Shown piece after piece: positions 2,499 through 49,813 of a stretch of 50,103 nt of DNA (its first letter is position 1; each line of letters begins with the position of its first letter). Location of the stretch: UHGV virus genome UHGV-0211888. One strand, 5' to 3'. Position numbers and translations under genes: made by a program. The stretch is from a virus. Below the pieces are notes generated by a model, which searched no databases, was not told the DNA's origin, and saw only the letters and a program-made list of their open reading frames with translations.

Positions 2499-2509
2499 AC
2501 TTTTAGCAA

Positions 2510-3187: not shown

Positions 3188-3211
3188 AATTTATATTTTT
3201 ATTTCCTTTCA

Positions 3212-7090: not shown

Positions 7091-7095
7091 ACTAT

Positions 7096-7278: not shown

Positions 7279-7296
7279 AATGTTTTATCCTCCATT

Positions 7297-8519: not shown

Positions 8520-8520
8520 A

Positions 8521-9519: not shown

Positions 9520-9535
9520 CTTTTATATCCTTTCG

Positions 9536-10243: not shown

Positions 10244-10248
10244 CTTAA

Positions 10249-10497: not shown

Positions 10498-10566
10498 TTT
10501 TATTTCCTCCTTATAGTTCTGGATGCTACTCCATTAGATGATATGTTTATTTTGCGAAATGTAAAA

Positions 10567-11319: not shown

Positions 11320-12176
11320 TTTGCTGCCTCCTTGGTCTTAATTTCTACAGGTTTGAAAGTAGATTTTTCCTTATCAAATGGCAAGAAATCTCCTCCGTCT
11401 TCTGAAGCATCCTGTATCGGTTCCTCGTCAAAGGATATAACCTTATATTCATGACCTTCAGCATCTTTTGTAGGAGTTAAATTCATGTGAATCCATTCAA
11501 CTCCAGTGGTGTCATCCAAATATTCTTTTGTCCAACCCCAGCAATAATCTGCTTTACTGATAGTCTTTTCATTTATAATATCTGCTTTAGCATCGCGTAA
11601 CATATCATATATTAAACAGAAATATGCAGTTTTATTATTCTGATCAACAGTATGGATACGTTGATTCATATCAGCATATGCTCTCATCAGATCTTCAGGT
11701 TTTGCTCTAAAGAAACCGATGCGTTCGATCCAATATAGATCAGTACCGCCGTCCAAGTCCGGATCGATTAAGTCAATACCAGATTGTTTTGCATCATCTT
11801 TAGATATACTTTGAAGAATGCTCTTGTGCGTATCAATACCGAGCATGTCTTTCACCTTATCAGAATACTTATAATATCCTTGCTGAAGCACTCCTGCACA
11901 GGCAAGTAGTGATACTTCTGCCTTTTTATTCAGAATAGCACTTCCGATGATAGAGGCGATAGTAATACCGCCAATCACGCCAGAGCGAATATAATAAGGA
12001 GCTTCAGCTTTCACCAACTCCATTTTTGTAGGATTCGGCTTGTTCTTGATGAGCTCTTCTCTTTTCTTCTCAGCTTTCTTACTGTCTTTGACTGCAAAAT
12101 ATGCAGTTGCTACTGTTCCAACAGAACTTAAAAGTGCCAAACCAACTGACACAATATTTTTCGTTTTAATATCCAT
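11316..12176 (-). CDS. Membrane protein, paralog family B (286 aa).
   Basis: TM LALLSSVGTVATAYFAV, then KKAEKKREE, then a second hydrophobic helix. Confidence 0.5.
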   Translation of the reverse strand: MDIKTKNIVSVGLALLSSVGTVATAYFAVKDSKKAEKKREELIKNKPNPTKMELVKAEAPYYIRSGVIGGITIASIIGSAILNKKAEVSLLACAGVLQQGYYKYSDKVKDMLGIDTHKSILQSISKDDAKQSGIDLIDPDLDGGTDLYWIERIGFFRAKPEDLMRAYADMNQRIHTVDQNNKTAYFCLIYDMLRDAKADIINEKTISKADYCWGWTKEYLDDTTGVEWIHMNLTPTKDAEGHEYKVISFDEEPIQDASEDGGDFLPFDKEKSTFKPVEIKTKEAAK

Positions 12177-12189
12177 CTTTTAATCCTTT

Positions 12190-12969
12190 CTAATTTAATG
12201 ATATTGCTTCTGGCATAATAATTTTATAGCCGGTCTTGACCTTTTCGATTTTTACGCCATTAAGATCTTTCCAACCATATTGTTCATACTTGGAATTACT
12301 ATAGTCAATTATCTTGGTACAATTAGTACTAGAAGCGGCGAGACTAAAGTAATATTTTACCGATAATTGACCTTTTCTACTAATTTCTTGCTTGGATATC
12401 TGAAGAATGTTATTAACCGTCTCCTTATTAGAAAATATAAAATCATATATTTTTAATATATCTCTCATGAAATTGAAGTGAATAGGTCTTGTAGAAAATT
12501 TAAGCATATATGGTCCATTAATATTTACATGACTTGAATGCAAGACTCTAATCTGAAAATGATCATTCCGAATCCAACCATATTCGTCATCTTCTTGCGA
12601 TGTCGTGCGCCCGCAAATATTATAACACTCACCGCAAGTTATAAACCCACTCTTCTTGATCGTATCTTTAATAATACCCTTAGCCGTATAGGCATCACTC
12701 CGATTCTTAAAAAACAGATGTCTGAAATGGTATTCGGGTTTATCAACCTCTTCGCAATCATCCTTCGGTTCTTCATGACGATAAGCTTCGCAAGTAATGA
12801 TAAGATGTCTCTCTTCGTCAGGATTACCTTTAGAGACCAAGTAGTACTTGAATGCAGTCGGATCTGCATCATTATCGACACGCTCCCCGACGACTTGATA
12901 CTTGAACGGCATCATTGATAACATCATCAAAGCTTCACCAACCTCAACATTTCGTTTTAACCAATTCAT
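12190..12969 (-). CDS. Hypothetical Cys-cluster protein, paralog family A (probable start at 12969; the track ORF extends to 12999).
   Basis: The ATG at 12967-12969 is preceded by AAAGGAGGAAATAAAACA. This 26-nt RBS/start block is identical to 14815-14840. CxxC-like pairs are ITCEAY...C and CGEC...C. Confidence 0.45.
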   Translation of the reverse strand: MNWLKRNVEVGEALMMLSMMPFKYQVVGERVDNDADPTAFKYYLVSKGNPDEERHLIITCEAYRHEEPKDDCEEVDKPEYHFRHLFFKNRSDAYTAKGIIKDTIKKSGFITCGECYNICGRTTSQEDDEYGWIRNDHFQIRVLHSSHVNINGPYMLKFSTRPIHFNFMRDILKIYDFIFSNKETVNNILQISKQEISRKGQLSVKYYFSLAASSTNCTKIIDYSNSKYEQYGWKDLNGVKIEKVKTGYKIIMPEAISLN

Positions 12970-13082
12970 TGTTTTATTTCCTCCTTTGATTAAAATCAAG
13001 AGAACTATATTTTTATAATTCTCATAATGTAAACTGTTTATTTTGCGAATTAACCAAATCTGACTCTAATAATAAATTCAGT

Positions 13083-13502
13083 TTATTCAGTCATTTTCTT
13101 ATTTGTCTTCTCATAGATGAAATAGTCGTCATAGCCGATATCATCATTGTATGCTTGCATATCATACCAATAAAATGGATCCGATTCGCAATGTTTATCG
13201 AATAAATACTGCATGAGATGATTCAATGTACTAGCCGAATATCTATAGAATATAATTGTGTTCGGTTTAGACATCGGATCATCTCGACACTCAATGCAAT
13301 AGCACCAATGATCAAATATTATGCCATCTGCAGTTGACTCTTCTGAACTCATGTGATCATATAGGTCATCTATTACTGTATCTATAGCATATTGCTCCAT
13401 GACTCGGATACGAAATTCCTCATCACACCAATAAGGTTCAGGATCAGGATAGTATTTATTCCTAAACTGATAAATGGTATTGACATCGTCAATAGTGATC
13501 AT
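13083..13502 (-). CDS. Acidic, aromatic-rich hypothetical protein (139 aa).
   Basis: ORF, strongly acidic and Trp/Tyr-rich composition. Confidence 0.4.
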   Translation of the reverse strand: MITIDDVNTIYQFRNKYYPDPEPYWCDEEFRIRVMEQYAIDTVIDDLYDHMSSEESTADGIIFDHWCYCIECRDDPMSKPNTIIFYRYSASTLNHLMQYLFDKHCESDPFYWYDMQAYNDDIGYDDYFIYEKTNKKMTE

Positions 13503-13563
13503 TAATAGCCACCTCCATCAAAAATAAAGATATAAGTAATTGTATACTTATATCTTTTCAGAC

Positions 13564-13776
13564 TTACTTTTGTTTAATCTTCTTTTGTGTTTCCTCTTTA
13601 GACTGTCGAATCGCCTCTTGTTCATCTGCATAGCCTATACCTGCATGATATCCCTGAATCTTTGCAATCTTCTCTTGCTTAGAATAGGTCATACCTGCAA
13701 ATATTAAACTACCAACACCAACAATAATCGACACGACTGGTCCAATGATTGGAACCCACTTAATAAACTTATTCAT
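13564..13776 (-). CDS. Small membrane protein (70 aa).
   Basis: TM WVPIIGPVVSIIVGVGSLIFAGM. Its leader 13783-13818 is the 36-bp repeat copy B. Confidence 0.45.
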   Translation of the reverse strand: MNKFIKWVPIIGPVVSIIVGVGSLIFAGMTYSKQEKIAKIQGYHAGIGYADEQEAIRQSKEETQKKIKQK

Positions 13777-13782
13777 AGTTAT

Positions 13783-13818
13783 AATCCTCCATTAAATAAC
13801 TTGTTCATCATGCGAAAA
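13783..13818 (-). promoter_or_regulatory. Conserved leader/promoter element, copy B, preceded by a weak AGGAGGATTGCAAGTCCTCT hairpin (13827-13846).
   Basis: 35 of 36 nt identical to 711-746. Confidence 0.5.
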
Positions 13819-13856
13819 TAAAAATAAGAGGACTTGCAATCCTCCTATTTTTGAAT

Positions 13857-14261
13857 CTAAAATTTCTTAATGAAATCCTTAAAAGCTCCTGGCGTACGTC
13901 CATTATCGACATATTCTAGTTTCATTGACATTATCATTCCTGCGAAATACAGACTAGCTGGAATTACGATACCAGCAACTTTCAACCCCAAATCGATAAA
14001 TCTGTCTCGTTTTGCTTTCTTATCATCTTCAGCAGATTTGCTTACTTCTTTTTCTCGTAAACTTACTTCTTTTTCTCGTAAACTCTCCGCTTTCAATGAC
14101 TTTCGCTTTTCCTCCTCAAATTTATCATCATTTAGGATCATGTTATTAATATCTAACATTTCCTTTCGCATAGTCTCCCTTTTTTCAGGTTCAGCATTGC
14201 CATATGAACTAGACATGACACGTAATACAGATGTCAGGTTCGTTTTTGTTTCAGAATCCAT
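13857..14261 (-). CDS. Charged coiled-coil protein with a C-terminal TM (134 aa); contains a tandem 21-bp direct repeat (SLREKEVS x2).
   Basis: tttttctcgtaaacttacttc occurs twice near 14048-14090. The TM is GLKVAGIVIPASLYFAGMIM. Confidence 0.4.
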   Translation of the reverse strand: MDSETKTNLTSVLRVMSSSYGNAEPEKRETMRKEMLDINNMILNDDKFEEEKRKSLKAESLREKEVSLREKEVSKSAEDDKKAKRDRFIDLGLKVAGIVIPASLYFAGMIMSMKLEYVDNGRTPGAFKDFIKKF

Positions 14262-14299
14262 TTTAATACCTCCTTGATTCCATTATAATAGTTGTTTGT

Positions 14300-14521
14300 C
14301 TAGCGATCGTTAACAATTGACATATAGACAGCATCCTTTTTAGATATACTGTCTATATCATAGTCAAATCCTGCGTATATTTCCTTGTCTCTAGTAATAT
14401 GTAGAGTTCCTACACTTTTGACGGATTTTTTGTATCGTTTTACGGATACAATACCTCCGACTAGTGCCGAAACTCCACATAATGAGATAATACCAAATAG
14501 TTTGAGTATTTTTCTCATCAT
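14300..14521 (-). CDS. Small signal-anchored protein (73 aa).
   Basis: N-terminal hydrophobic LKLFGIISLCGVSALVGGIV. Confidence 0.4.
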   Translation of the reverse strand: MMRKILKLFGIISLCGVSALVGGIVSVKRYKKSVKSVGTLHITRDKEIYAGFDYDIDSISKKDAVYMSIVNDR

Positions 14522-14817
14522 TTATCTCCTTTTATAATATAAATTGGTGGAATGGATGTCTTCACAGATGTTGCACGAATAGCTTTAACACTGAATGCAA
14601 TACTGAAGCATGATGCAATAAGTGATGCACCTGTAGCAATCACCAAAAGAGTTGCAATAGACTCAATCTTTTTGTTCCCATTCTGTATCAGGTCATTTGC
14701 AGATTTGGAAACTTGCTTGATTGAATCTTTTGTCTCTTCAATTGCAGCACTGGCTTTGTCCATAGTCTCGACAGCCTTATCGGTCGGCTTCTTGAATAAT
14801 TTACTAAATAATCCCAT
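14518..14817 (-). CDS. Small membrane protein (99 aa).
   Basis: TM LLVIATGASLIASCFSIAF. Its RBS/start block is identical to that of 12190..12969. Confidence 0.45.
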   Translation of the reverse strand: MGLFSKLFKKPTDKAVETMDKASAAIEETKDSIKQVSKSANDLIQNGNKKIESIATLLVIATGASLIASCFSIAFSVKAIRATSVKTSIPPIYIIKGDK

Positions 14818-14855
14818 TGTTTTATTTCCTCCTTTGATTATTTTGTAAAAAACAA

Positions 14856-14872
14856 GAGGATATGAAATCCTC
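14856..14872 (-). terminator. Intrinsic terminator hairpin GAGGAT-ttcat-ATCCTC, followed by a T-run on the minus strand.
   Basis: 6-bp stem with a 5-nt loop, then (minus sense) TTGTTTTTTAC. It lies 3' of gene 14885..15097. Confidence 0.45.
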
Positions 14873-14884
14873 CTGTTTTAGTAC

Positions 14885-15097
14885 CTATTTACTGTACTTC
14901 TTTATCAGTTCTTCCTGATCTTCTAACAGATCGTCCATAGCTTCATCTTCAGTTGCATATTCAACCCCGGTGTAGATATTAACAATCTCACCAGTTGGTT
15001 TAATCCATATGCAATCGAATAATTGCTTCCAACCCTGTTCTTCAAGAGTCTCTTCTTCTTCTTTTTCCATACCTTTTAGGTCCTCCATTACACTCAT
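14885..15097 (-). CDS. Very acidic small protein (70 aa).
   Basis: MEDLKGMEKEEEETLEEQ ... DEAMDDLLEDQEE. Confidence 0.4.
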   Translation of the reverse strand: MSVMEDLKGMEKEEEETLEEQGWKQLFDCIWIKPTGEIVNIYTGVEYATEDEAMDDLLEDQEELIKKYSK

Positions 15098-15156
15098 TGT
15101 TTGTCTAGCGAATAAAATATAAAGACCATTGTTACATGATCCTTATATATGAAAGC

Positions 15157-15330
15157 TTACTTATTACTTTCTTTCTCTTCTTTAGATTCCTTAGAAGCTT
15201 CTTTCTGAGCTTTTAGCATTTTAGCATTATAACTTGCCTTTGCTGCTTTCTTAATAGCATATGAAGCTGCTCCTGCTACAGCTAAACCTCCGAACAAAGC
15301 CCCTAAACTTCCCAAAAATCCTAATTTCAT
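15157..15330 (-). CDS. Small membrane protein (57 aa, absent from the ORF track because it is under 60 aa).
   Basis: My own translation of the minus strand starting at ATG 15330: MKLGFLGSLGALFGGLAVAGAASYAIKKAAKASYNAKMLKAQKEASKESKEEKESNK. It has a GGAGGATTATAATT SD and a leader related to the 711-746 family. Confidence 0.4.
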   Translation of the reverse strand: MKLGFLGSLGALFGGLAVAGAASYAIKKAAKASYNAKMLKAQKEASKESKEEKESNK

Positions 15331-15421
15331 AATTATAATCCTCCATTAAATGATATGTTTATAATACGAGAAAAAATAAAGGACATTGTTTCTATTACTA
15401 GAAGCAACATCCTTTGCCGAA

Positions 15422-33214: not shown

Positions 33215-35317
33215 TTATGGCATTACTTGTGCATCTGTTACATTAAATGTAACTTTAACAACAATATGCGAATCAGATGCTGATACTGCTGATATAATAA
33301 CAGTTCCGGCTTTTTTAAAACTTACGAGACATGAGGACGAAACATCTGCAGAAGATGAAAGATCCGCAATGGTAGGATCACTTGACGACCATCGTACGTC
33401 TTTATTAGTGGCATTATCCGGTTTAACCGTAGCTGTTAATTGAAGAGTATCTCCAGTATTGGCATTTACTGTTCCGGTTTTGTTTAAAGTAATACTTGTT
33501 GTAGGAACAATAACCAAAACACCTACGCTTTTACTTTCCTTGCATATAGTATCGTCATGAGGCCTGACAGAGACATTAGCATATCCGCCAGATTTAGCGG
33601 TGGCAAGTCCAGTATCACTAATAGTTATAATACTTTCCTGATCAGAAGACCAAACTAGTTCTTTATCGGTTGCATCATCTGGTTCTAGACTGGCTGTGAA
33701 TTGAAAAGTATCACCGAGAGTCATGCTACTATTATCTGGAGTATTACCTAATTTTATACCAGTTGGATGAACAACCGGCTCAGTAACTGTAACTTCACAA
33801 GTAGCAAATGTTAGACTATGAGCATAAGCATAACCTACAATGTTAACTTTTCCAGCAGATACGGCAGTGACGACTCCAGAACTATAACCAACTGTTGCGA
33901 CTGCAGGATTTTCTGTATGCCAGAAAACCTCCTGATACGCATCATCAGGTTTAACTGTAGCTGTTAATTTTTCAGTTGAACCTTTGGCAATTGATGTACT
34001 CGTCTTATTTATTGTGACAGTTGATGGCTTGGACAAAACATGAGCATGGGAAGTTGCTTTGGCATCAGGGTTATCGACAGAAGTTGCCGTAATTACAACA
34101 TCTCCAGCAGATTTGGGAGTTGACCATCCTAGTCGATCAATAATAGCCTTGCTCTCATCGGAAGATGACCATTTTATTTCTTTATTTGTTGCATTATCTG
34201 GCTCTACACGTGCCATAAATACTAGGTGACTAGTATCATTATAATCATATAATGTAATATTATCAGATGTAATCATCTTAACAGCAGTAACACGAACTGT
34301 ATAGTCAACTTTCTTTTCAAAAGTCACAGCAGAATAAGGAATAGTCAAGGCACCAGAGCAACGTGTCTCAATAAGATAAGATTGCTTGTTATAATCAATA
34401 TCAAAGTCGTCGAATAAAGACACCTGACCACCTTTATCAGCGCCAATAGTATAATCTGCAAGATTAACCATGATACCTAAGAGTTCATAAGAAAAGACAC
34501 CATCTTCATGCCCGATATTGTCAAACACAGGTACAGCGACAATCTTGCTTACTCTTAAAGCAGTAGCTAAAGCCTCTTGAGATTGATAAAGAGATATTCC
34601 GTACTCATCTTCAAGAAGCAGCATATTAGTCAACATATCTTCAGTAGTATAAAGAACTGGATTACCAGATCCTTTATAGTCCTTTCTAGACTTAACAACC
34701 TCTTTGATGAAATTCTTTGTAAAATCATCATCAGACTGGCTATCAGTCTTTTCAAGAACTTTATGAACAGCATAGACAGGATCATCGGTAAGAATAGGAC
34801 GAACATTATTTTCATTAATATGGTCATTGTCAGTTAGACTTCTACCATCTCCAATAAAAATAGCTCGAGCAATTTCTTCGTTCAACATTGTTCGCATTTC
34901 ATTCTTAATCCATGCGATCACGTCAAAGTCAGTGATATCGATAATATCATCTCTGTCCATCTTTTGCAATTTGTAAATTGTAGTTGGATCTGTAGAACGC
35001 TTTAATGCTGAAAAGACTTCCTCGACTTTTTGTTTACCTTTAACATAACCTTTGGCACGAGCTTCGTCTTCAGTAATGTTAGCATATCTTGTCTTGACTC
35101 TTGAAAATGGAACATGACGTACTCTTGAAAGAGCATCAGTTACCCATGAAGTATCTCTGCCTACAAGATTTGGTTCTTTATTAACATACTGAACCTCAGG
35201 AAAAAGATTTTCAACATCAGTAATACCATGTTCAAGAAATGCGTCTTTTAAGGAACCGCTTCTTTTGGCTTCGCTTACAATCTCGTTAAATTCACTGTGT
35301 GCAATAGCTTTTTCCAT
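33215..35317 (-). CDS. Capsid-domain paralog (~330 aa, about 65% identical to the C-terminal domain of 37358..39097) fused to four C-terminal Big_2-type Ig-like repeats, 700 aa.
   Basis: Shared blocks include FLEHGIT.VENLFPEVQ, YANIT.D.ARAKGY.KGKQKVEEV, MDRDD.IDITDFDV and ARAI.IGDGRS. The repeats are ...KPDDA/KPDNATNK..W.S.... as in Big_2 domains. Confidence 0.5.
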   Translation of the reverse strand: MEKAIAHSEFNEIVSEAKRSGSLKDAFLEHGITDVENLFPEVQYVNKEPNLVGRDTSWVTDALSRVRHVPFSRVKTRYANITEDEARAKGYVKGKQKVEEVFSALKRSTDPTTIYKLQKMDRDDIIDITDFDVIAWIKNEMRTMLNEEIARAIFIGDGRSLTDNDHINENNVRPILTDDPVYAVHKVLEKTDSQSDDDFTKNFIKEVVKSRKDYKGSGNPVLYTTEDMLTNMLLLEDEYGISLYQSQEALATALRVSKIVAVPVFDNIGHEDGVFSYELLGIMVNLADYTIGADKGGQVSLFDDFDIDYNKQSYLIETRCSGALTIPYSAVTFEKKVDYTVRVTAVKMITSDNITLYDYNDTSHLVFMARVEPDNATNKEIKWSSSDESKAIIDRLGWSTPKSAGDVVITATSVDNPDAKATSHAHVLSKPSTVTINKTSTSIAKGSTEKLTATVKPDDAYQEVFWHTENPAVATVGYSSGVVTAVSAGKVNIVGYAYAHSLTFATCEVTVTEPVVHPTGIKLGNTPDNSSMTLGDTFQFTASLEPDDATDKELVWSSDQESIITISDTGLATAKSGGYANVSVRPHDDTICKESKSVGVLVIVPTTSITLNKTGTVNANTGDTLQLTATVKPDNATNKDVRWSSSDPTIADLSSSADVSSSCLVSFKKAGTVIISAVSASDSHIVVKVTFNVTDAQVMP

Positions 35318-35330
35318 TTTGAATTATCTC

Positions 35331-35999
35331 TTAACCAGCAGCATTCATAATTGCAATAATGTCGTTAGGCATTAACAACTTGGAAGGAGCATCGGCGGTA
35401 CCATATAAAGCATCTTCGATTTTTTTTAACTTATCAGGTTTAATCTTTGTTGAATCGATTACAAGATGTGCAGTTGGCTTCATACCTTTAACTTCCACAG
35501 GTGTAGTCGAGACTTCCCATGAAAGTGTAATGGCAGAAGGTGAATCGTTAACAGTCTCATAACTTCTTTCGGAAGGTTGAGCTAAACAATTATAAATGAT
35601 GTGAAGCTTATAACCAGCATTGGCATCAATGTCATTCCCTACTCTAGTTCTATAACTAAATGCAAACTTCTTGCGTTCCTGTTGACTAACACTGACACCA
35701 GGAGCAAGTTCTACAGAGCCATCACATGGTCCAAATTCATCAGGACAGCTATAGGCTTCGATAGTTGCACCAAAGTTCTCAATAGAGAGAATATTAAGGT
35801 ATTTAATGTTATCAGCATAAATAGCTGTTGGCTCGGCCCCGTCAGGAGACTGAGTAACAGTTGTAAGACCATTCCAAGCAACACCAGAGGAATAACTAGT
35901 ACCTCCGGAATTGTCGACACTGGCAACAAACAGAACGCCATGGTCAACGCCTGTTTCATATCCATGCTCGCCAGCTTTATCCCAAATTAATTTAGCCAT
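35331..35999 (-). CDS. Major tail (tube)-like protein, copy 2 (222 aa).
   Basis: Paralog of 36017..36691 (MAKLIWDKAGEHGYETGVDHGVLF... versus MAQLKWDEVGKRGYETGVDHGVLY...). A 44-nt stretch, 35536-35579, is identical to 36219-36262. Confidence 0.45.
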   Translation of the reverse strand: MAKLIWDKAGEHGYETGVDHGVLFVASVDNSGGTSYSSGVAWNGLTTVTQSPDGAEPTAIYADNIKYLNILSIENFGATIEAYSCPDEFGPCDGSVELAPGVSVSQQERKKFAFSYRTRVGNDIDANAGYKLHIIYNCLAQPSERSYETVNDSPSAITLSWEVSTTPVEVKGMKPTAHLVIDSTKIKPDKLKKIEDALYGTADAPSKLLMPNDIIAIMNAAG

Positions 36000-36016: not shown

Positions 36017-36691
36017 CTATTTCAATTTCAAAATATTAACAATTTCATCAGGCATTAAGACTGTAGGTTCTTCAGTATCTGTTCCGTAGAGCTTATCCTC
36101 AATGAGTTTAAGCTTAGCAGCAGCACACTTGGTAGAATCGATCACCAAATGGGCGGTAGGTTTCATACCAGTAACATCAACTGGGGTTGTAGAAACTTCC
36201 CAAGAGAAGGTAATAGCCGAAGGTGAATCGTTAACAGTCTCATAACTTCTTTCGGAAGGTTGTGCCAAGCAGTTATAAATAATATGAAGTTTATAACCAG
36301 CTTCAGGATTAAGATCAGTACCGACTTTAGTACGATAGCAGAAGCAGAACTTCTTACGATCTTGTTGATCAATGGAAACACCAGAACCTTCACTACCGAG
36401 TTCCGCCGATCCGTCGCAAGCGGCAAAGGCATCAGGATATGTATAAGCTTCGATCGTAGCACCAAAGTTCTCAATAGAAAGAATATTCAAATACTTGATA
36501 TTATCTGCATAGATAGCAGTAGGTTCGGCACCATCTGGAGATTGGGTGACTGTAGTCAAACCATTCCAGGCAACGCCATGACCCCATGTGGTACCAGCAG
36601 CACCACTATTATTGGCGACATAAAGAACGCCGTGGTCGACACCGGTCTCATAACCGCGTTTTCCGACCTCGTCCCATTTTAATTGTGCCAT
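36017..36691 (-). CDS. Major tail (tube)-like protein, copy 1 (224 aa).
   Basis: Tandem paralog of 35331..35999. Confidence 0.45.
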   Translation of the reverse strand: MAQLKWDEVGKRGYETGVDHGVLYVANNSGAAGTTWGHGVAWNGLTTVTQSPDGAEPTAIYADNIKYLNILSIENFGATIEAYTYPDAFAACDGSAELGSEGSGVSIDQQDRKKFCFCYRTKVGTDLNPEAGYKLHIIYNCLAQPSERSYETVNDSPSAITFSWEVSTTPVDVTGMKPTAHLVIDSTKCAAAKLKLIEDKLYGTDTEEPTVLMPDEIVNILKLK

Positions 36692-37357: not shown

Positions 37358-39097
37358 TTAGCCAGCAAGTTTCTCTTCAAAAGAAATAGCAGAATAAGGA
37401 ACAACTAATGCTCCAGAGCAACGAGTTTCGATGAGATACTTTTGCTTGTTGAAATCAATATCAAAGTCATCAAACATAGAAACTTGACCACCCTTATCAG
37501 CACCAACATTATAGTCAGAAAGATTGACAAGAATACCAAGCAAGGCAAAGTTGTTAGCACCAACAGTTCTAGTATGACCTTCAAAGACAGGGACTGTAAC
37601 AATCTTAGAAACTCTTAAAGCAGTAGCAAGTTTGTCGACAGAGTCATAGATAACTCTTCCTGTCTTGTCTTCCATCAAGAGCATATTGGTGAGCATATCT
37701 TCAGATGTGTAAAGAACAGGATTTCCGGAACCTTTATATTCCTTACGAGACTTGATAACGTCATGAATAAATTTCTTAGCAAAGGTATCATCAGTATCTT
37801 CAGCAACTCTTTCAAGAGTTCTACTAACAGTATAGGTAGGATCATCACCAAGAATAGGACGAATATTAGAGGTATTGATATGATCATTATCAGAAGCAGA
37901 ACGTCCATCACCAATAAGGATAGCACGAGCCAATTCCTCATCAAGCATGACTCTCATTTCAGACTTTAACCAAGCAACGACATCGAAATCAGTAATATCA
38001 ATAACATCATCACGATCCATAGCTTGAAGCTTGTAAATAGTAGTAGGAGTGGTAGTTCTCTTCAAAGCAACGATAACTTCCTCGACTTTTTGCTTACCTT
38101 TAATGTAACCTTTGGCACGAGCAGCATCAGCAGTAATATTGGCATAAGTAGACTTAATTCTGGAGAAAGGAGTATGTTTGACACCACTCATAACTCCCTT
38201 GACCCAATCCATCTCACGAGAGACGAAGTAAGGTTCCTTATTGACAGCTTGAACTTCAGGGAACAAATTCTCGACATTAGTAATACCGTGCTCCAAGAAA
38301 GATTCCTTCATAGAACCATACTTCTTGGCATCGGAAACGATTTCCGAGAATTCGGCATGAGAAAGTTCTTCGGTTTTCTTCTCTTCTTTGTTTTGATTTT
38401 CAAATGCATTGTGTTTCATATCTTTATTATCCTCCTCGGCAGACTCAGCATCTCCATTCTTAGCATCTTCAATAGCCTGACCAACAATAGCAAACATCGC
38501 CTTTTTTTGCTTATCGGTCATTGTATTGATAACATCTTCAATAGTCTCTTCACTGTCGTCGGTTTCATCGGCAGCTTGAATCTTCTTTTCTTCTTCAGCC
38601 ATTTGTTTTTCCTCCTTTGTGTCATTATCGGCATGACTTAATTCAAGCCCTTCACTTGAATTCCAAATATAAGCCTCTTCCTCATTAGGTTCTGATTCGC
38701 CATGAGAGATGACATTCTCAATATAGGCACCAGGATTTGCACCTGCAAGAACGAGACTTACTTCTCGAATAGCACCATGAACGACATCATTGCCATTCTG
38801 TTTTAACTTATTGGCATAAATAGATAAAGCACAAATGTCACCATGCTGGACAAGTGCTTTAGCATTTCTGCCTTGAGGTGTATCATTAAAGGAACAATAT
38901 GCATAAACGCCACTGTCACGATCTTCTAGAAGAGCATGACCAAGGACATTGTCTGCATCCGTGTGATTGTGATTCCAGACAAGAGGAACCGTTGCACCAT
39001 TGTTTTCTTTAAAAGCACCCTTTAGGATTGTTCTACCATCGGAACAAGGAATTCCGAATCTAGTAGCCCATCCTGCAAAATCATATTTTTTGTCCAT
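37358..39097 (-). CDS. Prohead protease (HK97 U35/S78-like) - acidic scaffold-like linker - major capsid domain fusion, 579 aa.
   Basis: The N-terminal VPLVWNHNHTDADNVLGH ... ICALSIYAN...GAIREVSLVLAGANPGA matches the U35 hallmark E-V-S-L-V..PA. It is followed by an E/K-rich coiled region, then the ~330-aa domain shared with 33215..35317. Confidence 0.6.
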   Translation of the reverse strand: MDKKYDFAGWATRFGIPCSDGRTILKGAFKENNGATVPLVWNHNHTDADNVLGHALLEDRDSGVYAYCSFNDTPQGRNAKALVQHGDICALSIYANKLKQNGNDVVHGAIREVSLVLAGANPGAYIENVISHGESEPNEEEAYIWNSSEGLELSHADNDTKEEKQMAEEEKKIQAADETDDSEETIEDVINTMTDKQKKAMFAIVGQAIEDAKNGDAESAEEDNKDMKHNAFENQNKEEKKTEELSHAEFSEIVSDAKKYGSMKESFLEHGITNVENLFPEVQAVNKEPYFVSREMDWVKGVMSGVKHTPFSRIKSTYANITADAARAKGYIKGKQKVEEVIVALKRTTTPTTIYKLQAMDRDDVIDITDFDVVAWLKSEMRVMLDEELARAILIGDGRSASDNDHINTSNIRPILGDDPTYTVSRTLERVAEDTDDTFAKKFIHDVIKSRKEYKGSGNPVLYTSEDMLTNMLLMEDKTGRVIYDSVDKLATALRVSKIVTVPVFEGHTRTVGANNFALLGILVNLSDYNVGADKGGQVSMFDDFDIDFNKQKYLIETRCSGALVVPYSAISFEEKLAG

Positions 39098-42212: not shown

Positions 42213-43475
42213 TTACCTACGTTTCTTTTCAGTAGAGACGGGGAGTTTTCCTGTCTTCTTATAATAGTCAAATGCTTTCTGATTCGAAACTTCATTCATC
42301 TGTTGATTAACAACATAGTCGTTTTCTTTTTGTTTATTTTTAGTGAGTTTTTTAGCGACAGCACCTCCAATAAATCCTAAACTAGATGCTAGACCGATAG
42401 CTTTAGCCCAATTTATTCCACGTTTAAATTCATTGGTGTTAACTATTTTCCCAGTCTTTTTGTTCAACTTATTTTTGAATTTAAAGGAGTAGTCTGTAAA
42501 CCACTTATGGCCGGTCATCACTCCATGAGAACTAATTTTGGTCCCGGATAAATTTTTACCAATACGAAAACTGGAGTGATCTCCTTTGGGGCCAACAATG
42601 TTAGCAGCTCTGCTTTTTCCATACTTTTTGTCAAGAATAAGATTCACTGCATGAGCTCCTGCAACAACAGCGGCAGCAGCACCGATACCAATAGCAGTAC
42701 CGGTAGCAATTTTTCTAGCCTTATCATGCTGCTTATCTTTTTTGTATAAAGATCTTCCTTGCGGAGACATATTGCCTTGACGGTCGACTCCATAACGAAT
42801 CAAACCCTCATCAGTAAGAGAGCCATCGGGGTTCTGATAACGACGAATGCCCCACTTTTGACCTTTAACTCCATAGTGGTATAGTTCGTCAGAAAACTCA
42901 TCAGAATGTTTAGCAGAATCTTTATCTTTCTTGTCATTCTTACTTTTATCGATCTGACTTTGAACCTGAACATTCGGAATATTAACTGCATTAAATAGAT
43001 TAGGTAAAGTACCAGCACCGACCACTAATGACGCAATAGCTGCATTGGCCGCCATCTCACCAGCACGTACTTTTTTACCTTTTACCTTATTATATAATGC
43101 TGAAATTCCATAAGTTGCAGCAAAGGTTGCACCTGTAGAAATTAGGGAGGATAAGGCCGCCTTTTTAATAGCTGATCTCTTTTGTTGACTTCTTTTCTCC
43201 GGTGTAGAAACATCTTGGAGTCGCTTGTAGTTGTATTCGGCGTTAAGTCGATTAGACGACCTAATAAGGTCATCAGTTGACATCTTCTCAGGATCCTTAT
43301 AAGTTCCACTGTCATTGTACCTCGCTTTGCCTGCTTCAGTTAAAGTTCCGTCTTTGTTCTGATAATTACGAACTCCCCACTTTTGACCTTTAGTGCCATA
43401 GTGGTAAAGTTCATCATCTGAATTGGAAAGAAATTTATCTAAATAATTCTTTCCGATAGTAGTTTCATTTTTCAT
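42213..43475 (-). CDS. Hypothetical protein with two copies of a YHYG(T/V)KGQKWG(V/I)R.YQN.DG(T/S)LT(E/D) motif module, each followed by an Ala/Gly-rich hydrophobic segment (420 aa).
   Basis: ELYHYGTKGQKWGVRNYQNKDGTLTEAG and ELYHYGVKGQKWGIRRYQNPDGSLTDEG. Hydrophobic segments ALSSLISTGATFAATYGISALY and ATGTAIGIGAAAAVVAGAHAV. Confidence 0.45.
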   Translation of the reverse strand: MKNETTIGKNYLDKFLSNSDDELYHYGTKGQKWGVRNYQNKDGTLTEAGKARYNDSGTYKDPEKMSTDDLIRSSNRLNAEYNYKRLQDVSTPEKRSQQKRSAIKKAALSSLISTGATFAATYGISALYNKVKGKKVRAGEMAANAAIASLVVGAGTLPNLFNAVNIPNVQVQSQIDKSKNDKKDKDSAKHSDEFSDELYHYGVKGQKWGIRRYQNPDGSLTDEGLIRYGVDRQGNMSPQGRSLYKKDKQHDKARKIATGTAIGIGAAAAVVAGAHAVNLILDKKYGKSRAANIVGPKGDHSSFRIGKNLSGTKISSHGVMTGHKWFTDYSFKFKNKLNKKTGKIVNTNEFKRGINWAKAIGLASSLGFIGGAVAKKLTKNKQKENDYVVNQQMNEVSNQKAFDYYKKTGKLPVSTEKKRR

Positions 43476-43493: not shown

Positions 43494-43955
43494 TTATTTA
43501 GGTCTTTTAAAAGTCGCTGTGAATCCTTTGCCAAGAAGCTTAGCAACAGAATTAGACCCTGTTTGAAGAAGAGCAGCATTAACATCCTTTACACGAATAG
43601 TTTCAAATGCTTTTCTTGTTTCTGCTGCTTTCTTACCAGCAAGAACACGTTTGCCATGCTCTTTTCTTTTTGTAAGATACCAAGCCAATCCAGCTGCCGA
43701 TGCAGCAGTTGCTGCCAATCCAACGCCGATCGCAGTATTTCGTTTAAGTTTGTCTGATCGGGTAGTCATGTCTTTATCAAAATTTGCTCGTTGAGAAGGA
43801 GACATTTCTTGATAAGAATTGGCACCGTATCTTGCACGTCCTTCTTCCGTCAAGGTGCCATCTGCGTTTTGGTATCTTCTGATACCCCATTTCATTCCTT
43901 TAACTCCAGAATGATACAATTTACTATCCATTGGTTTATCCTCCTTTCTCTGCAA
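43494..43955 (-). CDS. Hypothetical protein with one copy of the same motif module (153 aa).
   Basis: SKLYHSGVKGMKWGIRRYQNADGTLTEEG ... AIGVGLAATAASAAGLAWYL. Confidence 0.45.
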   Translation of the reverse strand: MQRKEDKPMDSKLYHSGVKGMKWGIRRYQNADGTLTEEGRARYGANSYQEMSPSQRANFDKDMTTRSDKLKRNTAIGVGLAATAASAAGLAWYLTKRKEHGKRVLAGKKAAETRKAFETIRVKDVNAALLQTGSNSVAKLLGKGFTATFKRPK

Positions 43956-44304
43956 GAATTCGTTCTTGATCTTTAACTACATACATTCTCCATTCAAGTT
44001 CTGCAGCTTGTTTTTCGTAAGATGCAAGAACAACCGAGGAAGATGGAGGATCAAACAACAACTTCACCTTTAGGAAAATATATGATTTAATATTCTCTAA
44101 AAGTTTATTGTCTGATATAATATCAGTCCATGTACTTGTCTCAGTGCATCTGAAACCATCTTGTGGGCCGACACCCATTTGAATAAGATTAGCAATAACT
44201 GTGTTAATATGCATTAAAATATCTGCATCAAAGAAATCATATTCTGTAATTCCGAGAAATTTCTTTACAGAATTGAGAACGATGTCTGTATATTTCGAGT
44301 CCAT
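43936..44304 (-). CDS. Hypothetical protein (122 aa).
   Basis: ORF only. Confidence 0.35.
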   Translation of the reverse strand: MDSKYTDIVLNSVKKFLGITEYDFFDADILMHINTVIANLIQMGVGPQDGFRCTETSTWTDIISDNKLLENIKSYIFLKVKLLFDPPSSSVVLASYEKQAAELEWRMYVVKDQERILAEKGG

Positions 44305-45130: not shown

Positions 45131-45454
45131 TTCTGTTCTCCTTTAAAGTAGATTAAATATAATTTTTATATAGTTTTGGTTAACTATTTGGAGGAGCGTA
45201 CTAACTTTTTCCATAGTTTCTTGACCCGATACCTAAGGAGAAAGCAGGAGGAAGATAAAACAATAAATCTTTCATGAACTAGTAGTACGCCCCTCCAAAC
45301 AGCTAACCCTCCGAGCAAAAACATTTATAAAAAATATCCCGCCGGAGAATTTTTTCAGAGCCACGCGATTCGAGGGGGTGCACATATTGCTATACCCTCC
45401 CCCGGGTCTGAAAAATGCTGTTTGAGGTCTATTTTATTGATATTTTAGGCCATT
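45131..45454. promoter_or_regulatory. GC-rich structured intergenic region. A 17-bp inverted repeat (45187-45203 / 45283-45299, one mismatch) has a 79-nt loop. A second imperfect stem is TTTTTCAGA...TCTGAAAAA (45350-45415), with an internal GGGGG/CCCCC pair.
   Basis: tttggaggagcgtacta pairs with tagtacgcccctccaaa. Local GC is far above the rest of the genome. The region sits between the early block and the packaging block. Confidence 0.55.
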
Positions 45455-45715
45455 TTATTGACTTTTTTGTACAATTTTGTACTCGATGATGTTACCATCT
45501 TTCGAAATTGCACCTGTTTGCATCATGACTTTCATAGATCTCTCTATAGATTCTTTATTTTCTTCATCAGATAGTGAATCTGAAGTGATTGCAAGCGAAG
45601 CAAGTCTTTCGCAAGTGTTGTAACCTTTCTGAACGTCGAACGAAAGCCAATTGTCCCAATCAGTAAAGGGATTCCAAGGGTTATCAACAGTGGTAATTAA
45701 TGTTTGATTTGCCAT
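45455..45715 (-). CDS. Hypothetical protein (86 aa).
   Basis: ORF downstream of the RNAP-like gene. Confidence 0.4.
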   Translation of the reverse strand: MANQTLITTVDNPWNPFTDWDNWLSFDVQKGYNTCERLASLAITSDSLSDEENKESIERSMKVMMQTGAISKDGNIIEYKIVQKSQ

Positions 45716-45718: not shown

Positions 45719-48700
45719 TTACTCCTTTCCTGATAAGTATTTAGTAACAGTAGAAGGCGACACATTCAATGTATCGGCTATTTCTGCTGTTGTCAGACCA
45801 CTATTAGCCATAGCTTTCATACGTGAAATCTTAGATGGGCTGAGAACAGTAGTAGTTCTAGGTAAGGCTAACTGTTTAAGCCTTTGATCATCTACATATT
45901 TCATGATATTTTTAAGACGGGCAGTTGATATTGCACCGGCTTGTATGGCAGCCCATTCATTATCTGTAATTGATATTGGGTGTCTTTTTGCACCTACTTT
46001 TCTTCTTGCTATCATAAGCTCCTTTTGGGAAAGCTTTTGATATTCTTCGTTTGTCATATTAGGATCTGCTTGCCTCTTGGCTTTAAGATTAGTCTGAGCT
46101 ATTACTTGAGCCTGACGCTCTCTAGGGGCATTTAACTCTGACTGATTAAGCTTGTATTTTAATTGTTGCACCTCTGTTGCATATTTTTGGGCAGCATCTC
46201 TAGAATAGGGAATGTCTTCTACAGCCATACTCTCTTTTCTAGATTTAAGAGCCAAAGCTTTCAAATAATTTGCATAATCGGCGTATAATTCCTCTTGAGG
46301 AGTGCCAGAACTTAATGCATGGGCATCTTTCACGGCATTCATCTTAGGAATATTCATCATAGCTTTCTTAGAAATAATCTTCTTAGGATCTGTGATCTGA
46401 ACATACTCTTTTGTCTCAGGATCTTTGTAATAGTATTTACCATCTTGAGCAAAAGCAGATACAGTTTTGGTCTTATTAGTACCATTTACCTTAATCTGTG
46501 TCTGGTAATATGTCCTGTTTGTGTCATGATACAATAACTCTCCGGTTTTAGGATCAGTATATCTTGTACCAACACCCTTCTTACCTTTAAACATCTCACC
46601 AGTAGATCTGTCAATATATGTTTCATTCTTCTCATCAACTACGTCAAGCTTCTTACCATTATCTTTACGATAGAATTCACCTGGTTTTCTTTCAGGAATA
46701 GCATAATCTGCACTTGCTTGAGAAATAAGTGTCGAAGCACCGCCAAGTTTTTCAGTTCCTGATAAAGGATCGTAATGAGATTGATATTTGGCTTTTAATT
46801 GAGAAATATTGTTGTCAATATATGACTGCTTATAGTCGTACTTGTGCTTTACTGCATCAATAACAACCATTGAATGTCTAACCGCACGAGCAATTTCATC
46901 ATCAGTTGCACCTCTGAGTGTCATATCAGTAATAAGATTCGAAATCTGTCCCATTTCCTTTTGTTTGGAACCTTCGGACATGATTTTATACTCTTTACCA
47001 TTACGATATGCATGCTCAGTTCCATCTTTATCAAATTTAATTTCAGATGGACCATATGAATCGCCAGGATCAAAATTTTCGAGACCTTTAAGAGCCTTAG
47101 AAGAATTGACTCTAGTATTATCACTTAATGGAATGCAAATAACAGTATCACCATCGAAGTCCGCACCAGACATTTTGGCTGCGGCTTTAGCAGTAATACC
47201 AATAGCATCGCTAGGGGTTTTACCAAGATGCTCTTGAGCTTCTTTGTTGTCATTGTTCACAGTTAAGACAGGAATCTCAAAAGTACCACCATGAGGGAAA
47301 CGAATAAGAGCAACTTGTCTACCATTAGGTAAATCTGGATTGTAACATTCATCATCCTTTAACGATGGAACAGGAAGAATAACCTTATACTTTTGACCAG
47401 AAAATGCAGCAGCCTTTAAACTAACAGAAGCGGCATCACAATCATCGGCATAAGATTCAAGCAAATGACGTTTAATAGTAGGATTAGTCAATGACATAAT
47501 CTCATCATATTCATCTTGTTTGTCTTTCTCAGATTGGAGTATTTGCTTCTTAATAGTAGATTTTGGTTGTTTAGATAGAAATTGAGAAGGAAGTTCATGC
47601 GACCAATCTCCCCAATCACCTTCATCAGATCTTTTGTTAATTGCTGACAAGGATTGTTTATTGCCTGTCATCGGATCAGTATATTTACCATTAGGATCAT
47701 CGTAATATGATTGACCACCGACTTCCTTGATTGCAGAACCGAAAGGATTGTCAGGATCTTTCTTAATAGCTTTAAGAACACCGCCATCGGAAGTAGGCTT
47801 TCCATTAGCATCAAATGCCTCCAAAGGAGTTCCGGTCTTCTTACTAGTATTAAATCTGATGTCAACACCTTTAGGAAGGTCATCTGAATAAACAGCCATA
47901 CCTTTAAGGTAATGAGTTCCATCGACCATAATACGAACCTGAGAATATGCAGATCCACCAAGACTTAAATCTTTAACTCCTGGACGAATCTCAATAAGAC
48001 CATCTCTTTCAGCACCGCCTTGATCACTATATCTGACAGCAACTCGCTTAGAAGATATAGAAGTCGGATACCTGAAAGAAGGTTCAAGTGTTTGCCCACC
48101 ATCTCTAGTGGTGAAGTCTTCAACGCCATGAATATCCTCCAATTTATAAGCATCAGAATATGGAACTCCAGGAGGACAAAGTACTTTAACAGTTGTAAAA
48201 TTTCCTTTATTAGTAGCTTGTTCTACTCTAATTGAATATACATTGTAGCCTTTTTCTTTGAGAATCTCAATAGCAGAATTAAGTTTCTCTCTTGAAACTC
48301 CTAAATATTTCTCAGATTGGGTTCCAACATCGATCATACCTTTTTCTTTTACAATAGTTTCGAGATTATCGGCAACTTTCTGAGTTTTACTAAGACGATT
48401 CTGTCTTTCAGAGTTTAATGCACTCCTGACGGAAGATTCGTTAATACCCAACTTTCTACCGATTTCTGTAGGAGTAAGACCATCTTTCTGCAAAGATTTA
48501 ATATCTGCTAGAATGAGTTTTCTTCTTTCTTCAGTTGCGATAGAACGCTTTGCTCTAAATTGAGTTGTACTCATTCCAAGAGCATTAGCAATCTCAACTT
48601 CGGACATTCCTTTAGACTTCATTTCATCAATACGGCTAAGAAAGTCACCGGTTCTTTGATAAGGATCATCACCAGAACCCCAAGGATAACGTCCTGAATG

Positions 48701-48814
48701 TCTTGGAGTACCATAATGTTTTACATCTTCATCTGATTCTTTATCCTCACCAAGAAAAATATCTGGAGAGGGTTTTTCTAAATTGATTTTTCCGTTTCGT
48801 TTTTGCTCGTTCAT
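45719..48814 (-). CDS. Two-barrel (DPBB) polymerase homologous to the multisubunit RNAP beta-prime/beta catalytic core (YonO-like single-subunit RNAP) fused to sigma-region-4-like HTH domains, 1031 aa.
   Basis: aa 503-556 LIRFPHGGTFEIPVL...AKAAAKMSGADFDGDTVICIPL (nt ~47147-47314). Compare beta-prime NRAPTLHRLGIQAFEPVL...AAYNADFDGDQMAVHVPL. aa 740-752 EMFKGKKGVGTRY (nt ~46571-46585); compare beta RHGNKGVVSRI. HTHs: MSEVEIANALGMSTTQFR, LTPTEIGRKLGINESSVRSAL, LTTAEIADTLNVSPSTVTKYL. Confidence 0.55.
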   Translation of the reverse strand: MNEQKRNGKINLEKPSPDIFLGEDKESDEDVKHYGTPRHSGRYPWGSGDDPYQRTGDFLSRIDEMKSKGMSEVEIANALGMSTTQFRAKRSIATEERRKLILADIKSLQKDGLTPTEIGRKLGINESSVRSALNSERQNRLSKTQKVADNLETIVKEKGMIDVGTQSEKYLGVSREKLNSAIEILKEKGYNVYSIRVEQATNKGNFTTVKVLCPPGVPYSDAYKLEDIHGVEDFTTRDGGQTLEPSFRYPTSISSKRVAVRYSDQGGAERDGLIEIRPGVKDLSLGGSAYSQVRIMVDGTHYLKGMAVYSDDLPKGVDIRFNTSKKTGTPLEAFDANGKPTSDGGVLKAIKKDPDNPFGSAIKEVGGQSYYDDPNGKYTDPMTGNKQSLSAINKRSDEGDWGDWSHELPSQFLSKQPKSTIKKQILQSEKDKQDEYDEIMSLTNPTIKRHLLESYADDCDAASVSLKAAAFSGQKYKVILPVPSLKDDECYNPDLPNGRQVALIRFPHGGTFEIPVLTVNNDNKEAQEHLGKTPSDAIGITAKAAAKMSGADFDGDTVICIPLSDNTRVNSSKALKGLENFDPGDSYGPSEIKFDKDGTEHAYRNGKEYKIMSEGSKQKEMGQISNLITDMTLRGATDDEIARAVRHSMVVIDAVKHKYDYKQSYIDNNISQLKAKYQSHYDPLSGTEKLGGASTLISQASADYAIPERKPGEFYRKDNGKKLDVVDEKNETYIDRSTGEMFKGKKGVGTRYTDPKTGELLYHDTNRTYYQTQIKVNGTNKTKTVSAFAQDGKYYYKDPETKEYVQITDPKKIISKKAMMNIPKMNAVKDAHALSSGTPQEELYADYANYLKALALKSRKESMAVEDIPYSRDAAQKYATEVQQLKYKLNQSELNAPRERQAQVIAQTNLKAKRQADPNMTNEEYQKLSQKELMIARRKVGAKRHPISITDNEWAAIQAGAISTARLKNIMKYVDDQRLKQLALPRTTTVLSPSKISRMKAMANSGLTTAEIADTLNVSPSTVTKYLSGKE

Positions 48815-49455
48815 TATCTAGAATTCCTTTCCATAATTTCTATGATCTGCTTGTTACGTATAACTATCAGATTCATAATATTCTCGATGTCATTTGGATT
48901 TGCTTCATCTTCGATGATCTGTTGATTTTGATAGATTCTTAAAATGATCTTAAAATCTTTAGGATGCTTGTGATACTCCAAACAGAATAAAGCAGCATAA
49001 ATCATAAGTTGCTCCATATGTGCAGGAATAGTACCAGATTTGTAATCTGAGATTCTGAGAATTCTTTCTCTATCAGAAAAATAAATAGCATCTGTTGTTC
49101 CGAAGCAATAGTTGCTGTAATAAAGAAGAACCTCGGAACTCATTCTGAATCCGATTGAGTCATTAACGAAGTTCATCAAATTTAATAGAATAGACTCAGT
49201 ATCAAAAGCAGAATATGGAATTCCAGCTTTATAAAGGGTGATGTTAATCAGATGCCTATCGCTCTTATTAAGCTTGGTTCCTGACTTAATACAATCACTC
49301 GCTAATTGATGAAGAGCTGTTCCCATATCAGTTGCATACTGAGAATAGAAACGTTGCTCAAAATTATCATCAGTCCAATTAAGCCAATGATAGTTGCTGC
49401 CGCCCATAAGGGCATGCTTTCCTTCCAAGTTGTGGTGGTCATTCCACATGATCAT
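48814..49455 (-). CDS. PD-(D/E)xK nuclease, RecB/YqaJ-like (213 aa).
   Basis: GTTDAIYF ... ISDYKSG (D...DxK) and EQLMIYAALF (the QhxxY motif of RecB-family nucleases). Confidence 0.45.
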   Translation of the reverse strand: MIMWNDHHNLEGKHALMGGSNYHWLNWTDDNFEQRFYSQYATDMGTALHQLASDCIKSGTKLNKSDRHLINITLYKAGIPYSAFDTESILLNLMNFVNDSIGFRMSSEVLLYYSNYCFGTTDAIYFSDRERILRISDYKSGTIPAHMEQLMIYAALFCLEYHKHPKDFKIILRIYQNQQIIEDEANPNDIENIMNLIVIRNKQIIEIMERNSR

Positions 49456-49486: not shown

Positions 49487-49813
49487 CTAGTTCATGAAAT
49501 AGCAGGTCATCTCGTCTAATACTAATTTTTCGTTTTCAGGAAAAATAAAAGAAGAAAATCCCATGTTCGAAAATAGACTAATGTAATAGTCTTGATTCGG
49601 TTGATGTGGTTCATCTTGTCCTCTTTTACATTCAAGCATAGCCCATTTCTGCCCAAATAAGATAAGCAGATCAGGAATACCTTGAATATAGTTTGGATCA
49701 TTTTTTAGGACGACTACCCCTGGTAGACGCCTTTCAATCTGTTTAATTAAATGTGCTTGGAATTGATTTTCGCGTCTCACCTTGAGTAGCCCTCCTAAAG
49801 AATGAAAAAACAA
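49487..49813 (-). CDS. VRR-NUC domain nuclease (108 aa; the track start is TTG, and the true start may be internal).
   Basis: GIPDLLILFGQKWAMLECK matches the VRR-NUC PD..E.K core. This is the first gene after the control region. Confidence 0.6.
   Translation of the reverse strand: MFFHSLGGLLKVRRENQFQAHLIKQIERRLPGVVVLKNDPNYIQGIPDLLILFGQKWAMLECKRGQDEPHQPNQDYYISLFSNMGFSSFIFPENEKLVLDEMTCYFMN

Follow-up and report, generated by a model that had tools for sequence, protein, structure and literature searches.

A putative single-chain two-barrel RNA polymerase with flanking helix-turn-helix modules at the right end of a phage genome

The virus genome UHGV-0211888, analyzed here as a single window of 50,103 nucleotides, contains on its minus strand an open reading frame (ORF) at 45719..48814 that encodes a product of 1031 amino acids. 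This product combines helix-turn-helix (HTH) modules at both ends with a two-barrel RNA polymerase (RNAP) core, belongs to the protein family PHROG 4291, and is the orthologue of Lactococcus phage 1706 orf75 and Rhodococcus phage ReqiPepy6 gp106. We conclude that the gene probably encodes the phage's own catalytically intact single-chain two-barrel RNAP, of the 1706 gp75 / ReqiPepy6 gp106 family. Its conserved neighbors, all on the minus strand, are an endonuclease gene (phrog_93, 49487..49813) and a Cas4-like exonuclease gene (phrog_3953, 48814..49455) on the upstream side and, after the polymerase gene, an ORF of 86 residues on the other (phrog_4303, 45455..45715), the conserved last gene, which corresponds to 1706 orf76 and ReqiPepy6 gp107. 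Two nucleases had been placed beside the gene in the initial annotation of this DNA, made from the letters alone, and these are the endonuclease and the exonuclease.

The catalytic-type residues lie in a beta-prime-like double-psi beta-barrel (DPBB), DPBB-A, at residues 475-562 (47129..47392, minus strand). Residues 501-562 contain V501-A-L-I-R505-F-P507-H508-G-G-T-F-E-I-P515-V-L, then G550-A-D552-F-D-G-D556-T-V-I-C-I-P562-L. In an alignment of 67 homologues with 52-80% identity (alignment A1), R505, P507, H508, E513-I-P515 and the stretch S549-G-A-D-F-D-G-D-T-V558 are invariant in all 67 sequences, and the beta-prime-type residues are still invariant in alignment A4, which includes the distant orthologues of Lactococcus phages 1706 and P078 and of Rhodococcus phage ReqiPepy6. 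Besides the invariant R505-x-P507-H508 and D552-F-D-G-D556, the placement of this barrel draws on hhalign (E 0.013 against E. coli beta-prime, E 0.052 against the YonO family) and on the predicted structural model. The two-barrel superfamily is recognized by an R-x-P and a metal-binding D-x-D-G-D loop in a beta-prime-type barrel and by a core fold that overall resembles solved members, and the protein has both. The initial annotation had likened residues ~503-565 to the catalytic DPBB of beta-prime on the strength of R-x-P-x-x-H...PVL and ADFDGD...PL; residues and fold matches support its core reading of a single-chain two-barrel RNAP-like protein in which the catalytic barrel of beta-prime type is intact. 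Downstream of the barrel, a conserved helical pair starting from M621-G-x-I-S-N-L-I-T-D-M makes up a bridge-helix-like element (residues 614-657; 46844..46975, minus strand) that aligns with I-G-E-I-S-N-N-I-T of YonO, and a C-terminal helical domain (residues 839-940; 45995..46300, minus strand) is conserved in the alignment and seen in the model.

Among the structural matches of the predicted model, QDE-1 ranks first and plant RDR2 second; further matches are the largest subunits of Pol I and of African swine fever virus (ASFV), archaeal, vaccinia and mycobacterial RNAPs, the beta-prime-like subunits of phages AR9 and phiKZ, P23-45 gp96, PolD DP2 and isolated DPBB domains. Foldseek searches of PDB and of BFVD returned the same proteins at the top. 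At the level of sequence, the Pfam model RdRP (PF05183) matches residues 544-681 below its gathering cut-off of 23.8 bits (13.0 bits, E 0.042), as it does 1706 gp75 (22.1 bits) and the ReqiPepy6 protein (16.2 bits). Direct comparison with YonO by BLASTP and by single-sequence hhalign gave nothing significant (BLASTP of the barrel, E 5.5). Aligning the family profile with a YonO profile (alignment A2) paired residues 475-631 with YonO 447-602 and brought RxPH, DxDGD and (M/I)GxISNxIT into register, at E 0.052 and a probability of 1%. The superfamily core is common to the protein and YonO, yet the protein falls outside the YonO family taken strictly and into a separate branch, the 'phage 1706' branch of YonO-like proteins listed by Ruprich-Robert and Thuriaux (2010). 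Homologues of YonO in alignment A2 have four invariant C-terminal cysteines (C799, C802, C816 and C819), zinc-ribbon-like by reading. These cysteines stand where the window family has HTHs, so the two lineages carry different C-terminal appendages.

The second, beta-like barrel (DPBB-B) most likely lies upstream of the catalytic one, at about residues 255-400 (47615..48052, minus strand), which gives a beta-like then beta-prime-like order. This placement is suggested by position and by the residues that are invariant within the stretch: D271-G272, R277, D282, R294, K304-G305, P314, G316, D318, N322, K325 and N356-P-F-G359. Together with R505, P507 and D552/D554/D556, the residues D271, R294 and K304-G305 fit the eight universal two-barrel residues (PMC2919709), of which a beta-type barrel supplies one acidic and two basic ones. 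The structural alignments, with 427 and 359 sequentially aligned residues, exceed the ~325 residues available from residue 475 on once the variable insert described below is excluded, so part of the alignment must fall upstream of residue 475; judging from the model, we infer that this upstream stretch is where DPBB-B of the solved enzymes sits. The predicted model has a predicted local distance difference test score (pLDDT) of only 48-79 at residues 255-400, and residues 236-420 modeled as a single sequence without an alignment reached a pLDDT of 37, which we left uninterpreted. Two long helices of the model at residues 418-465 (47420..47563, minus strand) are a putative connector, or clamp element, between the barrels, as the architecture of single-chain two-barrel RNAPs would have it. 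A by-eye match of the upstream stretch to the bacterial beta signature NKGV...DMP...VDIVLNPLGVPSRMNIGQ was discarded and not used as evidence; hhalign paired NPFGS..GGQ with NPLGV..IGQ instead (E 0.14).

The initial annotation had proposed the opposite arrangement, with the beta-prime-like barrel in front and, ~190 residues downstream, a beta-like barrel built on KGKKGVGTRY, the order that it also gave for YonO. The segment F742-K-G-K-K-G-V-G-T-R-Y752 does occur in this one sequence, at that distance past the DFDGD barrel. Across the homologues of alignment A1 its lysines vary, and 10 of the 67 sequences have gaps at the site; the surrounding segment is mostly missing from the 904-residue ReqiPepy6 orthologue and unalignable in the Lactococcus phages, and most matches of the library search are split in two at about residues 705-750. 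In the model, residues 700-823 form short beta hairpins and lack the helix pair that a DPBB has. Local alignment of residues 700-790 with the YonO N-barrel region gave z 2.86 (33 of 2000 shuffles scored as well), in aligned columns that miss the conserved K-G. In solved single-chain homologues the barrels run the other way round: QDE-1 has its beta-type universal residues (D709, R738 and K743) ahead of the beta-prime-type R962, P964 and D1007/1009/1011 (PMC2919709), and single-chain enzymes are ordered DPBB-B, connector, DPBB-A (Chaban et al.). By eye YonO has this order too, alignment A2 having an invariant K271-G272, taken as the beta-type lysine motif, upstream of R492-x-P494 and D535-x-D-G-D539. 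We find a beta-prime-first arrangement scarcely credible.

Residues 700-823 (46346..46717, minus strand) are instead a lineage-variable, dispensable all-beta insert, not a conserved catalytic element. KGKKGVGTRY occupies residues 743-752 of it. The insert has three repeated hairpins of Y-x-D-x-x-T-G-E type (YIDRSTGEMF, YTDPKTGELLY and YKDPETKEYV) and is placed after the bridge-helix-like helices. Cellular RNAPs carry lineage-specific trigger-loop inserts in the region past the bridge helix.

HTH motifs were found at about residues 58-80, 113-134 and 1007-1028. Pfam HTH families match about residues 96-134 and 991-1030, phrog_664 matches residues 57-177 (E 4e-17), and the predicted model adds a winged-helix-like module at about residues 160-213 and a three-helix unit at residues 951-983. 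The N-terminal DNA-binding module (residues 57-213; 48176..48646, minus strand) comprises two HTH motifs and the winged-helix-like unit, and the C-terminal one (residues 951-1027; 45734..45964, minus strand) comprises the three-helix unit and a strong HTH at residues 993-1027. Three HTHs, two N-terminal and one C-terminal, had been called sigma70-region-4-like in the initial annotation; their positions stand, and the sigma specificity does not. They share with sigma-70 region 4 a three-helix HTH of similar size, and the two stretches of the full protein that Sigma70_r4_2 matches add up to 36 bits. Scanned per region, Sigma70_r4 and r4_2 remain sub-threshold (22.3 and 21.3 bits with a cut-off of 25.7, and 18.3 bits with a cut-off of 24.1), HTH_23, HTH_7 and HTH_24 equal or outscore the sigma models in the same regions, and NCBIfam sigma models score far under their cut-offs. 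By these comparisons the HTHs appear generic, with no specific sigma-70 region 4 relationship demonstrated.

In front of the N-terminal module lies a peptide, HYGTPRHSGRYPWGSGDDPYQ (residues 30-55; 48650..48727, minus strand), that is predicted to be disordered yet has invariant H33, G35, S40, G41, R42, Y43, G46, G48 and Q53. The N-terminal peptide HYGTPRHSGRYPWGSG is loosely like the DUF7211 motif (L)YHYG(T/V)KGQKWG(I/V)R.YQN.DG.LT, a resemblance without statistical support. That motif occurs once in a 153-residue protein (43494-43955) and twice in a 420-residue protein (42213-43475) in which hydrophobic stretches can be seen by eye; both are virion-type proteins, encoded just upstream of the terminase and homologous to 1706 orf7, labeled structural protein. 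We rejected the HYG...PWG peptide as a DUF7211 motif, as it has no Pfam match and its BLAST similarity is weak (E 0.009 to 1).

The PHROG 4291 profile ('RNA-dependent RNA polymerase') covers residues 25-1030 of the protein with positions 6-908 of its 909 (E=0, 1119.5 bits). Full-length orthologues with 36-46% identity were found by tblastn in 250 phage records, comprising phages of Arthrobacter, Gordonia, Streptomyces, Rhodococcus and Microbacterium, Lactococcus 1706-like phages, Faecalibacterium phages and human-gut siphoviruses, and their annotations are inconsistent ('HTH DNA-binding protein', 'RNA-dependent RNA polymerase', 'hypothetical'). Near-identical DNA was absent from the phage collection, and a 97%-identical protein was found in metagenomes. 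A full-library search gave 877 clusters (50% identity, E<=1e-30), and relatives are encoded by more than 513 IMG/VR contigs. NCBIfam is without a model for the PHROG 4291 family or for YonO.

Koert et al. (bioRxiv 842583, version dated 2021) described the protein as the signature gene of a supercluster of actinobacteriophages, Lactococcus 1706-like phages and Faecalibacterium phages, with HTHs at both ends, a DxDGD motif and an HHpred match of the family alignment to Pfam RdRP at 95.7% probability, and named it 'HTH-containing putative RNA polymerase'. Streptomyces phage papers of 2024 and 2026 treat the 'RdRP' annotation merely as an oddity, and one 2026 paper takes the family for an RNA-virus enzyme. 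The window gene is a rediscovery, one more member of a family recognized earlier by sequence analysis; the novelty claimed for it in the initial annotation is forestalled by the earlier descriptions of both the family and its HTH-core-HTH architecture (2010; bioRxiv 842583).

The window is a circular permutation of the phage genome, whose cos site or physical end is probably at 45370..45405, where a GC-rich inverted repeat, CCCGGGGGAGGGTAT|AGCAATATGTGCACCCCCTCG, is found (no strand assigned). Two assemblies of the 97%-identical relative, possibly from the same sample, both end in ...CCCGGGGGAGGGTAT, which corresponds to window position 45392, 63 nt past the 86-residue ORF and within both the inverted repeat and a 324-bp non-coding gap; ReqiPepy6 has an annotated 3' cos overhang at the same place. 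Since the contigs of the relative end at 45392, the polymerase gene is the penultimate one before the right end of the linear genome. It is also penultimate in 1706 and P078, and in a hand count of ~51 IMG/VR contigs that reach 30 kb or more, ~21 have it at a contig end. The entire context of endonuclease, exonuclease, polymerase, small ORF and genome terminus is conserved with 1706 and ReqiPepy6. The gene comes after the replication/recombination module and, in a concatemer, directly before the packaging genes, and its assignment to a 'first (early) block' was an artefact of the permutation of the window. One base is shared by the exonuclease stop codon and the polymerase start codon, which makes co-transcription of the pair probable.

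A 30-nt leader motif, TTCGC-N3-AYRAACA-N5-TNTAATGGAG, is repeated in seven copies with a T-run in front (715-744, 1237-1266, 10529-10558, 13787-13816, 14278-14307, 15083-15112 and 15341-15370, minus strand), against none expected at three or fewer mismatches. All seven are on the coding strand, within 715-15370, the half of the window with small genes and replication genes, and only upstream of genes. Because the motif includes a -10-like TNTAAT, it could serve the host RNAP just as well. Its GGAG is also the ribosome-binding site in most copies; the copy at 10529 has a separate ribosome-binding site ~20 nt further on, so the motif cannot be a ribosome-binding site alone. Eight IMG/VR contigs had the motif, and none of the eight belongs to the polymerase-bearing set that was retrieved. 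The link between the leader motif and the polymerase is unproven, being neither supported nor excluded.

Other features of the window concern its structural genes and its start. Two paralogous minus-strand genes, 33215-35317 and 37358-39097, have 71-78% nucleotide identity over ~750 nt at an offset of 3060 nt. The 579-residue protein of the pair is a full phrog_3270 'head maturation protease' with a further, weak match to a major head protein family, and the 700-residue paralogue has only the C-terminal half of the phrog_3270 family, fused to Ig-like domains. On the minus strand, the major tail protein gene is duplicated in tandem at 35331-35999 and 36017-36691; the two copies share 74-77% nucleotide identity, and both match phrog_2645 (E about 1e-99). 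Short tandem-like repeats with TTGGCACTTTTTTGCCA-type units lie at 26-107.

A gene with this fold class, these beta-prime-type active-site residues, HTHs on both flanks, this family membership and a place at the right genome end is quite likely a polymerase that serves the phage itself. We propose that its chain runs from the N-terminal peptide through the HTH/winged-helix module, the beta-like barrel, the helical connector, the beta-prime-like barrel, the bridge-helix-like helices, the variable insert and the helical domain to the C-terminal HTHs. The two barrels would form a catalytic cleft in which D552/554/556 hold Mg2+ and R294/K304 touch the substrate. By analogy with YonO and P23-45 gp64, which are DNA-dependent phage RNAPs, the enzyme would transcribe phage DNA, and its fused HTH modules may tether it to phage DNA sites (promoters or the genome end) with no separate specificity factor. 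A primase role is unneeded because the phage encodes its own DNA polymerase-primase fusion, helicase and single-strand annealing protein.

As to when such a polymerase would act, the depositors' label 'structural protein' on the 1706 orthologue tips us slightly toward an enzyme that is associated with the virion and initiates early transcription; a role outside the virion, like that of YonO, is almost equally likely. The 1706 record, EU081845, was deposited by the laboratory that characterized the phage, and it gives plain 'structural protein' for orf6, 7, 11, 12, 13, 17, 20, 21, 62, 71 and 75 while marking predictions 'putative'. The ReqiPepy6 note carries the same label, and 1706 orf6 and orf7 have homologues in the window, at 43936..44304 and 42213..43475. 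A complete scenario would have the enzyme packaged in the virion of these ~50-kb Gram-positive siphoviruses, ejected with the DNA and finding phage promoters or the genome end through its own HTHs without a sigma-like partner, the disordered invariant N-terminal peptide perhaps serving as the packaging or ejection signal. Taken as a whole, this scenario is tentative and rather unlikely to be right in every part.

A polymerase of the YonO type, absent from the virion, would be made by the host RNAP from early or middle transcripts and then transcribe the late packaging, structural and lysis genes across cos in concatemers. In SPbeta the late operon is transcribed by YonO; in the window all genes point the same way, and the packaging/structural module starts ~260 bases past the candidate terminus; and the overlap of exonuclease stop and polymerase start points to expression with replication and recombination genes. 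Against these observations stand the 'structural protein' label of the 1706 orthologue (a depositor annotation), the location of the sole repeated phage-specific motif in the early/replication half and not before late genes, and the non-significant sequence similarity to YonO; we regard this explanation as possible, if somewhat on the unlikely side. The lead of QDE-1 and plant RDR2 among the structural matches would also suit a copier of RNA or single-stranded DNA that makes double-stranded RNA, primers or R-loops for replication, recombination or counter-defense, and is not a promoter-directed transcriptase. No polymerase model other than Pfam RdRP gives any signal in the sequence, and the gene adjoins an endonuclease, the Cas4-like exonuclease, a helicase and the single-strand annealing protein. 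Both characterized phage homologues, however, are DNA-dependent transcriptases, the phage already has its polymerase-primase fusion, and several HTH modules of sequence-specific type fit the recognition of sites in double-stranded DNA, all of which makes a copier of this kind improbable. Most public records call the protein an 'HTH DNA-binding protein', 1706 gp75 scores above the cut-off of the terminase-type HTH model Terminase_5, and the gene adjoins the genome terminus, as would befit mainly a DNA-binding protein (a regulator, a cos-binding protein or a packaging factor) with a non-catalytic relic for a barrel core. The catalytic-type residues are all invariant from Firmicutes phages to Actinobacteria phages, which is not expected of a relic, and we consider this explanation very improbable.

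Several results weigh against our main reading of a catalytically intact, DNA-dependent phage polymerase, perhaps virion-associated, and temper our confidence in it. We found no biochemical study of any PHROG 4291 family member in the literature. Searches of PDB sequences with hidden Markov models (HMMs), for the protein and for the family profile, matched the HTH regions only; the hhalign links to YonO, beta-prime and beta (E 0.052, 0.013 and 0.14) are not significant in sequence; and the upstream barrel, compared with beta and with YonO under shuffle control, reached z-scores of 0.74 and -0.46. The initial annotation had looked to HMMER searches of Pfam and PDB and to a structural model with Foldseek. 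The model delivered the QDE-1-type fold matches and the HTHs, with the placement of the second barrel inferred, and the profile searches did not deliver a polymerase match, with PDB giving HTHs alone, RdRP below its cut-off and the YonO profile at E 0.052. The label 'structural protein' is a depositor annotation, and a DNA-binding protein could co-purify with virions. QDE-1, the best structural match, takes both RNA and DNA templates, so the fold cannot tell template choice. Apparent co-transcription with the recombination nucleases suggests nothing specific to a late virion protein and is neutral on timing.

Single-chain two-barrel RNAPs are minimal relatives of the cellular enzyme, and few have been characterized: YonO, P23-45 gp64 and gp96, crAss-like gp66 and QDE-1. 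The PHROG 4291 family, present in 250 sequenced phage isolates across Actinobacteria and Firmicutes, far exceeds all of these in spread, and it alone among them has DNA-binding domains fused on both sides. The window adds one member to this already recognized family, and an answer to how its members find promoters and whether they travel in the virion would fill a real gap. If the full virion scenario is true, a phage lineage as large as this one, with its 877 clusters at 50% identity, would carry a two-barrel transcriptase that travels in the virion and targets itself to its sites.

Among known systems, the protein is closest to 1706 orf75 and ReqiPepy6 gp106, with which it shares full-length collinear homology at 36-49% identity to isolates, the HTH/core/HTH layout, the invariant motifs, the neighboring genes and the place at the genome terminus; it differs from the ReqiPepy6 protein in its longer beta-rich insert (residues 700-823). 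With YonO of Bacillus prophage SPbeta it has in common a single phage-encoded chain of ~100 kDa, three motifs in register and, by motif reading, the same barrel order, whereas HTH modules were not detected in YonO, which is not reported to be part of the virion and shows no significant sequence similarity to the window protein. The non-virion RNAP of Thermus phages (P23-45 gp64 / P74-26 gp62, PDB 8f5m) differs in its length of ~600 residues, its lack of HTH extensions and its identity of 12%. QDE-1 and plant RDR2 (PF05183) are eukaryotic RNA-silencing enzymes that use RNA or single-stranded DNA templates, and the window protein falls below the cut-off of their Pfam family. If 1706 orf75 is truly packaged, a functional analogy with the virion-packaged RNAPs crAss-like phi14:2 gp66, P23-45 gp96 and N4 vRNAP is possible, the first two of which are two-barrel enzymes as well.

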